Shown here: one piece after another, positions 18,501 through 21,635 of the stretch
How positions within the stretch are numbered: the stretch's first letter is position 1
Layout: each line of letters begins with the position of its first letter
Assembly (NCBI RefSeq): GCF_041146345.1
Contig: NW_027191404.1
Location: 2,232,001 to 2,296,000 of the forward strand
Source: Neodothiora populina
Taxonomy: Eukaryota
Direction of reading: 5' to 3'
DNA: 64,000 bases
Notes under the pieces: model-generated
Seen by the model: only the letters and a program-made list of their open reading frames with translations
What the model was told of the DNA's origin: nothing
Database searches by the model: none
Made by a program: the position numbers and the translations under genes

Positions 18501-19027
18501 GAGATGATCTTCCGACGGACCCCCAGTTGCTACCCAGTCTACTCTACTGCGCGACTACTCGAGGATTGCTATGGCAAACCCTTCTCAGTAGCTTCGGCAC
18601 TCTGATGATTACTTTCTGTGGAGTCGATTGCTCAAATGCCGCAACATACCTTAGTTTGATAATGATGACTTACGACCCTAACATACCACTTTTGACGTGG
18701 CATTGTTCTGATGACTGATCTTGATTATTGCGGTACACAACCATCACCTACAGCGCGACAAAACAAGGATGAGTTCAAGCCGATGTAGAGTGCTTATATG
18801 AGCGAAACGCATGTAGCCATTGAATTAATAAGAACGAACCTGAATTGTTTCTTTCAATTACATAAAGTATATATAGCAACGAGCTGTCCCAACGATCAGA
18901 GGGTTCGTGAGTGATCAAACTACACCCATCACTTCACCGTTATTCACAAAATAGTAGCCTGGTTATAACCGTCAGTCGTTGCTCAAGAATACATGAGCGC
19001 GAGAGAAAGAGGTGATATATAAGGAGG

Positions 19028-19125
19028 TGATTCAGAGATAGGGACTGAGTCCCGTGCAAGCTATTCCGCAGCAAAAGAGTACAAGTCTTCTCGGCCTGGT
19101 GCCAGCTGGTGTATCATCATATAAA
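19028..19125 (-). ncRNA. Box C/D snoRNA in a non-coding intron (18959-19170); D' guide predicted to methylate the 18S G562-equivalent
   Basis: Minus strand: donor GTACGT (19170), box C ATGATGA (19120-19114), guide GCTGGCACCAG-G then D' CCGA (19094-19091), box D CTGA (19035-19032), branch ACTGAC and acceptor CAG (18961-18959). The guide is an 11-nt perfect complement of conserved 18S CUGGUGCCAGC. Confidence 0.8.
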
Positions 19126-19212
19126 GAGAGGAAACGAGGGAAAAAGACAAAAAAATTGGTTAAAACGTACCTGTCAGTGATGGATCCAGACGAAACATGA
19201 CAAAAAGCGTGG

Positions 19213-19390
19213 TGATGTCCGCACCCCTGCTCAAGGCCAATCTTGACGACGGGTCGGCAAGACGATATGAGCAGTCTTTGGGCCCGAAAGCTCGCCAAAG
19301 CCGATGCGAAAGATATCAATATCAGCACTTCTCGGCGCAGTCTCAGCTATGGGTATGAGCTTGGACTGCAATTTGACATCCGTGCTAGGG
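19213..19390 (-). ncRNA. Box H/ACA snoRNA, snR85/ACA5-like (18S Psi1181-equivalent)
   Basis: Hairpin 1 has stems AGCAC/GTGCT and GCAGTC/GACTGC. Its pocket strands GTCAAATT and GCCG pair with 18S CGGC-UU-AAUUUGAC. H-like box ATATTG lies 14 nt from the pocket top; the second, branched hairpin closes with TCGCATC/GGTGCGG followed by ACA (19218-19216). Confidence 0.75.
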
Positions 19391-19493
19391 TATGTAAGGC
19401 GAGACGAAGGAATGGCAAGAGGACTGGGGGTCAGTAAAAGTCGAAAGGATGCATGTCGTGTACCGGTATTGTATTATACTAGGGATAAGTTTA

Positions 19494-21635
19494 CTACATG
19501 TCGTCTTCCGCATCATCCTCGGCAGCAGCTTCGCGGTCTTCGAACTTCATAAACTCGTCGCCATTGCCGCCAACGATACGCAGCCATGTCTGTTTGACAT
19601 TGTCGAGGACACTGTCGTTAAAAGCCAGATCCAAGGGAGCGTTCGGGAAACGAAGAATGTTGCCATTAGCTTCGTCAGCGACATTTGGTGAATGGAAGTT
19701 CGAGCTCTGTTGGTATTGCAACGTCCAGAGCACTTTGACATCTGATCCTTGTGTAGCGATCAATTTCTTGATGGCCTTTTGGAGTAACTCGAAGGCTTTG
19801 TCGCCAGTAAGAGCTATACTAGCGTAAAGAATACCTGTGACATCGACGTTAGCTTCTAGCTTTGAGAAGACTGAGTAGTAGTCGAGTTGAAGTGTGCAAA
19901 GTGGTTGCAGATCAGGTTGTCAGAGATGTTTGATAATCAAGGTTATTCAGGCAATGTAGATAAGTATTCGTATTCTTTGGTTCATCCTTGCATTGCCACT
20001 TTGCGGAAGATTGGAGGATATGGAATCGGCGTTTGAACTTACATTGACCCTTTGGACACTCGCCAGTGTCACTAGTGTGTGCTACAACATGCACAGGCGG
20101 AGTGGTTATTGAATCTGCATCCAAAGAGCTGGATGGAAAGACAACAACTGCGCCAGCTGGAGTGACACCACCCTCAGCTGTGACCGGGAAAAGTGAGGGA
20201 AGATCTGCAGACACAATCGAAATGCAGCGCGATATGACAGATGACTCAGTCAAAGTAGCGGCTTCGCCAGGATGCTCGCTACTGGCAATAGGCAAGTCAT
20301 CATCGGTCCCAACAACGAAGTCTGCTTTGACAGTATCTCCGCCATCTAGACGGATGTAAAATTGTCTCTGCGGCTCAGCAGGTTTTGATGTCTCTTGAGG
20401 TGCCGCTGCAGTCTCAGTGGGCTGGCCTGCATCTTCGGAGTCGATGCTGTATCCAGCTTCAGCCAAGAGCTGCTCCAGGGATTGCTCTTTGATCTCTGTC
20501 TCAAGAGTCTCGAGGCTTTCCTCGTTGGTGGGGACGAACTCATTGGCGCCAATAGCATCAGAGACTTCTTGAGAGATATCTTCCTGATCCATTTGAGGAC
20601 GTGGGACTTCTTCGACATCGCGGTCTTCAATCGATTCAATGCCTTTGCCAAGCACATAGACAGCACCCCCGACAGCGCAAGCTCGACATGCGACTTGAGC
20701 GAGCTCGGACAACCCGCCCCACTTAGGGATGACAGCGCCAAACCCTGGACCGAACATTCCGATGGACCGTAAATGTCTCGCGATCTTAGGCACAGCAAAG
20801 CCAGTAGTGGTGTTCTGGGGCATGTTGGGGCTCAAAGTCAATGCCAGCAAGGGACCATGTGACGCGACTGGGAGATTGAACTGCTGAACCAAGAAGTCGG
20901 GGAACGGGGTGTCTTGGTTCGTCTCCCAGATCTCGGGTCTCTCTTCATATGCAGCAACGAAGCGAATGAATTTCATCAAGGAGCCTTTCGACTTCAATGA
21001 CAGTGATTCATCGGCGAATATATCTTCCCGACCGTTAGGCACTCTGAGAAGTCTTTGCTGCTCTTCATCTACCGCTGCATCTGCACCACGCTCTCTTGAC
21101 CCACCACGGTCATAGACGAACCAGCTACCAACAGCTTGAAACTCAAGCTGCTGATGAGCTCTGGACGACACCAAGACGGGTAGCAGAGCTGACCGGGTGT
21201 AGAGCAGAGTTGGAGCTAGGGAGAGGTTGTACGAGCGGGATGATCCCACCGAGGCCTTGCCTACAACATCTGGACGATGGTATGAGGCATTGCTGAAAGG
21301 TGAACGGGAGTTTGCTATCGCTTGGTCAGCAACAGGTCTAGGCCGCGATGAACGAAGCTCCTCTTCTTACCTGAGTTGACAATCTCTGCAAATTGCTCGG
21401 CTTCATCGAGACTTAGTGCGGCCTCGGAGCCGCCGTAGACATCATTCTTGTCTATATGGAGGACTTTCTTCCCAGAACGGGACAGAGCACTTCAAATCAC
21501 ATGCTGCGTCAGTCAGAACCAATCACACATGGATGTTATGGTTCTTTAACAAGAGACATACAGTGCAAGCAGAGACTGCTGGATTCCTGTGCCAGAAATG
21601 AGAATATCCCAGTCTGTGCCTTCGAGTGTGTCCAT
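19494..21635 (-). CDS. MRS6: Rab escort protein / Rab geranylgeranyltransferase component A (GDI family), 4 exons
   Basis: WDILISGTGIQQSLLALALSRSGKKVLHIDKNDVYGG; SRSYNLSLAPTLLY; PKWGGLSELAQVACRACAVGG; ECPKGQC-ILYAS; acidic tail. Confidence 0.9.
19908..19992 (-). ncRNA. Intronic dual-guide box C/D snoRNA (snR62/U34-like) in the last MRS6 intron (19835-20042)
   Basis: C box AGGATGA (19988-19982), D' CTGA (19950-19947) preceded by CTTATCTACATTG (antisense to 25S CAAUGUAGAUAAG), C' TTGATTA, D CTGA (19915-19912) preceded by CATCTCTGACAA; flanked by the 9-bp inverted repeat GCAAAGTGG/CCACTTTGC. Confidence 0.87.

Follow-up and report, generated by a model that had tools for sequence, protein, structure and literature searches.

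Does the last coding intron of a GDI/Rab escort protein (REP)-family gene in the fungus Neodothiora populina encode a small nucleolar RNA (snoRNA) that directs methylation of both the large and the small ribosomal RNA (rRNA), and is the second of its targets a site confined to filamentous ascomycetes? We addressed this question in a stretch of 64,000 nucleotides (nt) of contig NW_027191404.1 (RefSeq assembly GCF_041146345.1, positions 2,232,001 to 2,296,000 of the forward strand), hereafter the window, in whose own numbering all coordinates are given. An initial inspection made from the letters alone (the sequence-only reading) had proposed a dual-guide box C/D snoRNA, with one guide to the conserved snR62/U34 site in 25S rRNA and a second guide to an apparently lineage-specific site in 18S rRNA. 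We find that the minus strand at ∼19992–19908 very probably encodes a genuine, intron-encoded box C/D snoRNA of ∼80 nt, the ortholog of CD22 from Neurospora crassa (snR62/U34 family).

Every motif named in the sequence-only reading was found where that reading had placed it on the minus strand, and the elements of the snoRNA are the following.

19908 to 19992, minus strand: probable box C/D snoRNA, CD22 ortholog (snR62/U34 family), placed with the family model R1 described below, with presumed mature ends
19996 to 20004, minus strand: 5′ arm of the external stem, GCAAAGTGG, 9 bp
19989 to 19992, minus strand: 5′ arm of the inner terminal stem, TGCA, 4 bp
19982 to 19988, minus strand: C box AGGATGA (variant AGGAUGA, with G in place of U at position 2)
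19952 to 19964, minus strand: D′ guide, DNA CTTATCTACATTG, RNA CUUAUCUACAUUG, with one C between guide and D′ box
19947 to 19950, minus strand: D′ box CTGA (CUGA)
19934 to 19939, minus strand: C′ box TGATTA (UGAUUA), degenerate (family consensus UGA(A/C)GA)
19917 to 19928, minus strand: D guide, DNA CATCTCTGACAA, RNA CAUCUCUGACAA, with one C between guide and D box
19912 to 19915, minus strand: D box CTGA (CUGA)
19906 to 19909, minus strand: 3′ arm of the inner terminal stem, TGCA
19896 to 19904, minus strand: 3′ arm of the external stem, CCACTTTGC / CCACUUUGC

The C box agrees with the consensus RUGAUGA at six of seven positions, and a canonical D box is present near the 3′ end. The D′ box is canonical as well, and the C′ box is degenerate when compared with the family consensus. 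The terminal stem that joins the C and D boxes is composed of the 4-bp inner and the 9-bp external part.

We scored target pairing on the N. crassa rRNA segments printed in Additional file 4 of Liu et al. (2009, BMC Genomics 10:515, PMC2780460), that is 26S 5′-ACAAUGUAGAUAAG and 18S 5′-UGUCAGAGGUG. The D′ guide CUUAUCUACAUUG forms 13 bp with 5′-CAAUGUAGAUAAG of the large subunit (LSU) rRNA, and its position 5 selects the U of CAAU, which is N. crassa 26S-Um1866 (Um, 2′-O-methyluridine), the snR62/U34 site. The D guide CAUCUCUGACAA pairs with all 11 nt of the 18S segment (one pair being G-U), and its position 5 selects the U of UUG-U-CAG, corresponding to N. crassa 18S-Um893. By the +5 rule an A faces the U in both guide duplexes, and on the N. 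crassa segments the antisense elements reach 13 bp (D′) and 11–12 bp (D), where at least 10 bp are expected. The twelfth D-guide pair requires an additional U 5′ of the printed segment (18S 5′-(U)UGUCAGAGGUG); the 12-bp D duplex of the sequence-only reading is thus recovered over 11 nt, including the G-U pair, on the N. crassa segment, and over its full 12 bp against a longer 18S string from an environmental locus (L119, see below). For a 12-bp match with at most one G-U pair, at a fixed place beside the D box and in ∼5.4 kb of rRNA, rough hand arithmetic gives a chance expectation of ∼0.002 matches; the complementarity of the D guide to 18S rRNA is more than chance, and this is borne out more strongly by the 97 of 115 loci, described below, that keep its core although they were retrieved without any D-side sequence. 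The number ∼U896 that had been proposed for the 18S target in yeast agrees with the offset between the two species, because N. crassa Am793 and yeast 18S-796, which are both guided by snR53, differ by +3. The yeast LSU number of the D′ target we take to be 1888.

Both predicted targets have a published counterpart. N. crassa CD22 is a 79-nt intronic snoRNA that was cloned as complementary DNA (GenBank EU780946); its D′ guide is assigned to 26S-Um1866 (14/0 match), with snR62 in Schizosaccharomyces pombe and in Saccharomyces cerevisiae and U34 in Arabidopsis and human listed as homologs, and its D guide is assigned to 18S-Um893 (11/0 match), with a dash for S. pombe, S. cerevisiae, A. thaliana, and H. 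sapiens (PMC2780460). The duplexes drawn there pair CUUAUCUACAUUGU-CCAA with 26S 5′-ACAAUGUAGAUAAG and UACCUCUGACA-UU-CUGA with 18S 5′-UGUCAGAGGUG (PMC2780460). Compared by eye, the snoRNA in the window resembles CD22 in being intron-encoded, in its length of ∼79 nt, in its D′ guide CUUAUCUACAUUG, in its D-guide core CUCUGACA, and in the nucleotide selected by the +5 rule in either duplex. It differs from CD22 in its C box (AGGAUGA rather than AUGAUGA), in its D′ box (canonical CUGA rather than CCAA), in its D guide (CAUCUCUGACAA-C rather than UACCUCUGACA-UU), and in its long external stem. The 13-nt 25S complement that had been read from the D′ guide is the D′ target of CD22, and the statement that the 18S uridine is no known site in S. 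cerevisiae is in line with Liu et al., who give no yeast homolog for 18S-Um893. Since the dual-guide design and both predicted targets were printed for CD22 in 2009, they were already known, and our analysis is in this respect a rediscovery: the dual-guide reading itself stands, but its second target is not a new site.

Outside the filamentous ascomycetes, snR62 of S. cerevisiae and S. pombe and U34 of plants and human (SNORD34, Rfam RF00147) have the LSU target of the D′ guide in common with the window, whereas the list of Liu et al. holds no counterpart of the 18S guide for them (PMC2780460). The stretch common to the Rfam SNORD34 alignment is the antisense element together with the D′ box. 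A comparable design is known from two box C/D families of the Pezizomycotina, snR87/CD_10 and snR53/CD_11, to which a D target specific to the lineage has been added (Canzler, Stadler and Schor 2018, PMC5824354): there, too, a deeply conserved D′ target is combined with a lineage-restricted second target on an antisense element that is otherwise ‘non-functional’. Neither snR62 nor CD_22 is named in the main text of that paper. A full-text literature search for ‘Um893’ returned Liu et al. as the only relevant paper.

The D guide is retained well beyond the window and N. crassa. We scanned metagenomes with a pattern made of the C-box tail and the D′ guide only, containing no D-side sequence, and obtained at least 115 loci. 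In 97 of the 115 loci listed, TCTGACA-NN-CTGA follows the D′ guide at a distance of up to 80 nt, the D-guide core keeping the same offset from the D box, and these loci contain 76 unique snoRNA sequences of 72–83 nt. Eleven of the listed loci have no snoRNA architecture when inspected by eye and are likely chance matches (L002, L007, L008, L018, L034, L080, L088, L092, L098, L103, and L109), and one (L065) is interrupted by a contig end. The other six (L001, L012, L038, L081, L089, and L096) are snoRNA-like with a different D-side sequence; they keep C box as well as D′ guide, with no 18S guide upstream of the D box. By eye, L038 is otherwise similar to the members of Sordariomycete type, which suggests a secondary loss of the D guide.

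We then aligned the 76 orthologs and the window to a 20-nt 18S string from L119, whose core is identical to the N. crassa segment. The uninterrupted duplex that includes position 5 spans 9–14 bp (median 11, n = 77 including the window) and amounts to 12 bp with one G-U pair in the window. Position 2 of the D guide, opposite a U, is A in 45, G in 22, and T in 10 sequences; position 10, opposite a G, is C in 74 and T in 3; and position 11, again opposite a G, is C in 52, T in 18, and A in 7 (n = 77 in each case). The variation outside our filter thus consists mostly of transitions that preserve a Watson-Crick or a G-U pair, as selection for pairing with a constant target would predict. Conservation of the D guide in orthologs had been set beforehand as a test of the 18S assignment, and it is borne out by the core in the 97 loci and by substitutions that keep the 18S pairing. 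A sequence-only covariance model of the family (R1), built from 77 orthologous stretches (alignment A1) from which the window was excluded, has its sole match in the 64-kb window at 19910–19990 on the minus strand (65.9 bits, E 1.3e-19), with the score deriving mostly from the boxes and the two guides.

The snoRNA is also conserved in its genomic position. In the window it lies in an intron whose features, together with those of the host gene, are as follows.

19835 to 20042, minus strand: host intron, 208 nt, phase 1, recognized by splice signals and by the in-frame joining of the flanking open reading frames
20042–20037, minus strand: 5′ splice site GTAAGT
19853–19848, minus strand: branch-like sequence GCTAAC
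19838–19835, minus strand: 3′ splice site ACAG
20043 to 21366, minus strand: upstream exon region of the host gene, GDI/REP family (Pfam PF00996 GDI, E 3.5e-11)
21315–21491: further GDI N-terminal piece (E 3.4e-06)
19494 to 19834, minus strand: last coding exon of the host gene, stop codon included

Once the 208-nt intron is removed, the open reading frame at 21366–20043 joins 19834–19494 in frame with zero internal stops. The upstream part matches the Pfam GDI family (PF00996), and we therefore assign the host to the GDI/Rab-escort family; that its product may be an escort protein we infer from this GDI match, which is weak and interrupted. In tblastn searches, the last coding exon of the window directly follows the snoRNA in at least 63 of the 115 related metagenome loci, among them L001, L038, and L096, three loci without the D guide. 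The encoded proteins are only ∼26–50% identical across these loci in the last coding exon. The same exon in at least 63 loci indicates that the snoRNA was retained in one homologous intron, the last coding intron of this GDI/REP-family gene. Its distance to the 3′ splice site is nearly constant: the last base of the D box lies 71–97 nt (median 77, n = 63 loci) from the G of the splice-site AG, and in the window the distances are 77 nt to this G and 63 nt to the branch A. Such spacing fits a splicing-coupled assembly of the small nucleolar ribonucleoprotein (snoRNP); the optimum is said to have been placed by Hirose and Steitz in 2001 at ∼70–80 nt from the 3′ splice site.

We located the 18S target region by aligning a plant 18S contaminant among the metagenome loci (L126) to the Rfam eukaryotic small subunit (SSU) model. 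The region consists of an 8-bp lower stem (consensus uugcgucG), a 3-nt internal loop (cuA), a 3-bp upper stem (Gag / uuC), and a hairpin loop GUGAAA, and we take this hairpin to be helix 23 (the ‘690 loop’ hairpin). The fungal target U corresponds to the opening nucleotide of the internal loop (∼model position 905), and the guide duplex extends from the three final bases of the lower-stem strand through the internal loop and the upper-stem strand to the middle of the hairpin loop. In the SSU consensus, lower-case letters mark both the lower-stem strand and the opening base of the internal loop, which are thus variable across eukaryotes; this confines the complementarity to a lineage. The main text of the plant reviews examined makes no mention of a site at 18S U88x–U90x. 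A literature search for RiboMeth-seq in filamentous fungi returned a single relevant work, the available part of which reports 33 2′-O-methylated (Nm) sites in the 18S rRNA of Chaetomium thermophilum and 18 in yeast (Wild et al. 2025, PMC12723226). These data are compatible with both CD22 targets, though they are not site-specific.

With moderate confidence, we propose a reading that takes four statements together. The 18S Um (U893 in N. crassa, ∼U896 in yeast) would be a real modification that is widespread among filamentous ascomycetes and lies in the helix 23 internal loop, at the platform/E-site region of the ribosome; it would be missing in yeasts, plants, and animals, since the lower strand of helix 23, which forms part of the target, is lineage-specific; its guide would be a snoRNA that is held at a fixed place in the last intron of a Rab-escort/GDI-family gene; and it would be one of the ‘extra’ modifications near nucleotide 900 reported for C. 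thermophilum 18S rRNA. For N. populina itself, both rRNA methylations, like the expression of the snoRNA and its assembly into a snoRNP, are what we infer.

Several observations weigh against the reading of the locus as a CD22 ortholog that directs both methylations. The presence of the targets rests on the N. crassa segments and on guide conservation rather than on the 18S and 25S rRNA of this species, and the primer-extension check of Liu et al. was limited to the targets of CD11 and CD29, so that 18S-Um893 is a published prediction (PMC2780460). A scan of genome contigs for ribosomal DNA gave 55 loci, mostly plant or protist contaminants; only L127 and L157 have the fungal ITS1F site, and both stop short of the target sites, and a scan of viral contigs for ITS1F gave zero loci. 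Positions 3–9 of the D guide are fixed by our own filter and hence uninformative; the metagenome loci carry no taxonomic labels, and the ortholog counts are not phylogenetically independent. The six snoRNA-like loci without a D guide imply that this guide is dispensable, and absent or lost in some lineages. The G at position 2 of the C box together with the degenerate C′ box UGAUUA could reduce activity. Lastly, the window scores 13.6 bits with SNORD34 (RF00147), below the gathering score of 38; SNORD34 gave zero matches at E up to 10 in a 4-kb search, no family attains its gathering score in the Rfam scan at the locus, and the orthologs L003, L014, and L015 score 26.9–29.3 bits with SNORD34. 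C/D families commonly diverge outside their guides, and the missed SNORD34 score therefore lowers formal Rfam membership and not the orthology with CD22. Two further Rfam candidates were set aside: we give no weight to a snoU43 match (21.7 bits), which derives from boxes and spacer, and Afu_328 matches the orthologs weakly but has a different antisense element and is not the CD22 family.

Among the alternative explanations, the one that fares best accepts the snoRNA and a working D′ guide and lets the D-side element pair with 18S rRNA without methylating it, for instance as an aid to pre-rRNA folding or as a recruitment aid. It draws on the status of 18S-U893 methylation, which is in print only as a prediction (PMC2780460), on the six snoRNA-like loci, and thus some lineages, from which the element is missing, and on additional pre-rRNA pairing by C/D snoRNAs, a known phenomenon according to the available part of a study on such accessory contacts (PMC3116282). 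In that same part, however, the accessory contact and the methylation target are neighbors on one rRNA, but the two targets considered here lie on different rRNAs. The D box is moreover canonical, as is the offset of the element from it, and a 9–14-bp duplex with position 5 on the same U in 77 of 77 sequences (positions 3–9 by construction) is the geometry of a methylation guide. We therefore regard a purely non-methylating role as unlikely.

A second alternative explains the D-side conservation by some other target (a small nuclear, transfer, or messenger RNA) or by a structural role in the intron or the snoRNP, the 18S match being incidental. Some of the other N. crassa snoRNAs are indeed predicted by Liu et al. 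to target small nuclear RNA and transfer RNA (tRNA), but for the D guide of CD22 they give 18S-Um893 as the target (PMC2780460). The variation outside the fixed core (A/G, C/U, C/U) suits pairing with U, G, and G of 18S rRNA, and the D guide is unpaired in the centroid structure, though part of the region forms local pairs in the minimum free energy (MFE) fold; we consider this explanation highly improbable. A chance arrangement of short intronic motifs, or the decay of a snoRNA into a pseudogene, has in its favor the departure of the C box from RUGAUGA, the degenerate C′ box, and the lack of an Rfam family at gathering score, but can be dismissed almost entirely given the R1 score of 65.9 bits (E 1.3e-19), two intact guides, and a host intron, position, and AGGAUGA variant that are common to relatives.

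The variant C box deserves a separate comment. The U at position 2 of the C box is normally the flipped-out nucleotide of the kink-turn loop that is contacted by Snu13/15.5K, and a G at this place is unusual. AGGAUGA is also present in five of the 76 unique orthologs and, by eye, in N. crassa CD50, and is evidently an inherited and tolerated variant. The sequence-only reading had suggested that the external stem compensates for it. The flanks of the snoRNA in the window do form a strong duplex (−18.6 kcal/mol, z −6.2 compared with shuffled flanks), the second strongest among 83 unique flank contexts; the strongest belongs to L063, a close relative in which the outer arms are the same and the inner part is different yet pairing. 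In a fold of 121 nt the external stem is kept in the centroid structure (MFE −20.7 kcal/mol, z −2.37). Flank duplexes of −10 kcal/mol or stronger are, however, found in 2/6 AGGATGA members versus 11/71 ATGATGA members. Strong stems in both C-box classes indicate that the long stem is a trait of some lineages of the family and not a compensation for the C box, and this part of the earlier reading is not upheld. Flanking intron stems help assembly where the terminal stem is weak, according to the available part of a review (PMC10557570).

A second box C/D snoRNA is found nearby, at 19031–19122 on the minus strand (Rfam Afu_190, 56.7 bits, above the gathering score; the next best Rfam match is snR40 with 26.4 bits). 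Its antisense element, GCUGGCACCAG, is that of N. crassa CD43 (18S-Gm559) in Liu et al. (PMC2780460). The snoRNA is located in an apparent second intron at 18959–19170 (AG|GTACGT at ∼19170, ACCAG ending at 18959), with its D box 73 nt from the G of the 3′ splice site. This intron lies downstream of the host stop codon, so that a snoRNA intron may be present in the 3′ untranslated region of the host transcript. Between the stop codon and the Afu_190 intron, two hairpins fold at ∼19213–19390 (minus strand) and could represent an H/ACA snoRNA; this candidate weakly resembles the 5′ hairpin of snR85 (20.4 bits, E 1.2, gathering score 37) and has an ACA at 19218–19216 followed by 3 nt, and no clear H box (ANANNA) was found in it. 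Just past the host stop codon, at ∼19424–19497 (minus strand), a branch-like TACTGAC followed by CCCCAG could by eye mark a further short intron. Elsewhere in the window, a tRNA gene at 2169–2262 on the plus strand (Rfam tRNA, 56.1 bits) contains a 24-nt insertion in the region of the anticodon loop, which is presumably an intron; introns are common in fungal nuclear tRNA genes.

In the mechanism that we propose, the last coding intron of the GDI/REP-family gene would be spliced out and debranched, and exonucleases would then trim it to the CD22 ortholog. The 4-bp inner and 9-bp external parts of the terminal stem would juxtapose the C and D boxes for binding of the core snoRNP proteins (Snu13, Nop56, Nop58, and fibrillarin). 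The D′ guide would then steer fibrillarin to 2′-O-methylate the LSU uridine equivalent to N. crassa 26S-U1866, and the D guide would target the 18S counterpart of N. crassa U893 (∼U896 in yeast) for methylation.

The value of this locus as a discovery is low, as the dual-guide design and its two predicted targets were published for N. crassa in 2009. What is added here is that the 18S guide is retained in 76 distinct environmental orthologs with pairing-preserving substitutions, and that the snoRNA is kept in the same GDI/REP-family host intron at a near-fixed distance from the 3′ splice site. A conserved guide in a conserved intron and position makes the predicted 18S methylation well-founded and easily testable. 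If true, it would represent a helix 23 ribosome modification that is specific to filamentous ascomycetes.

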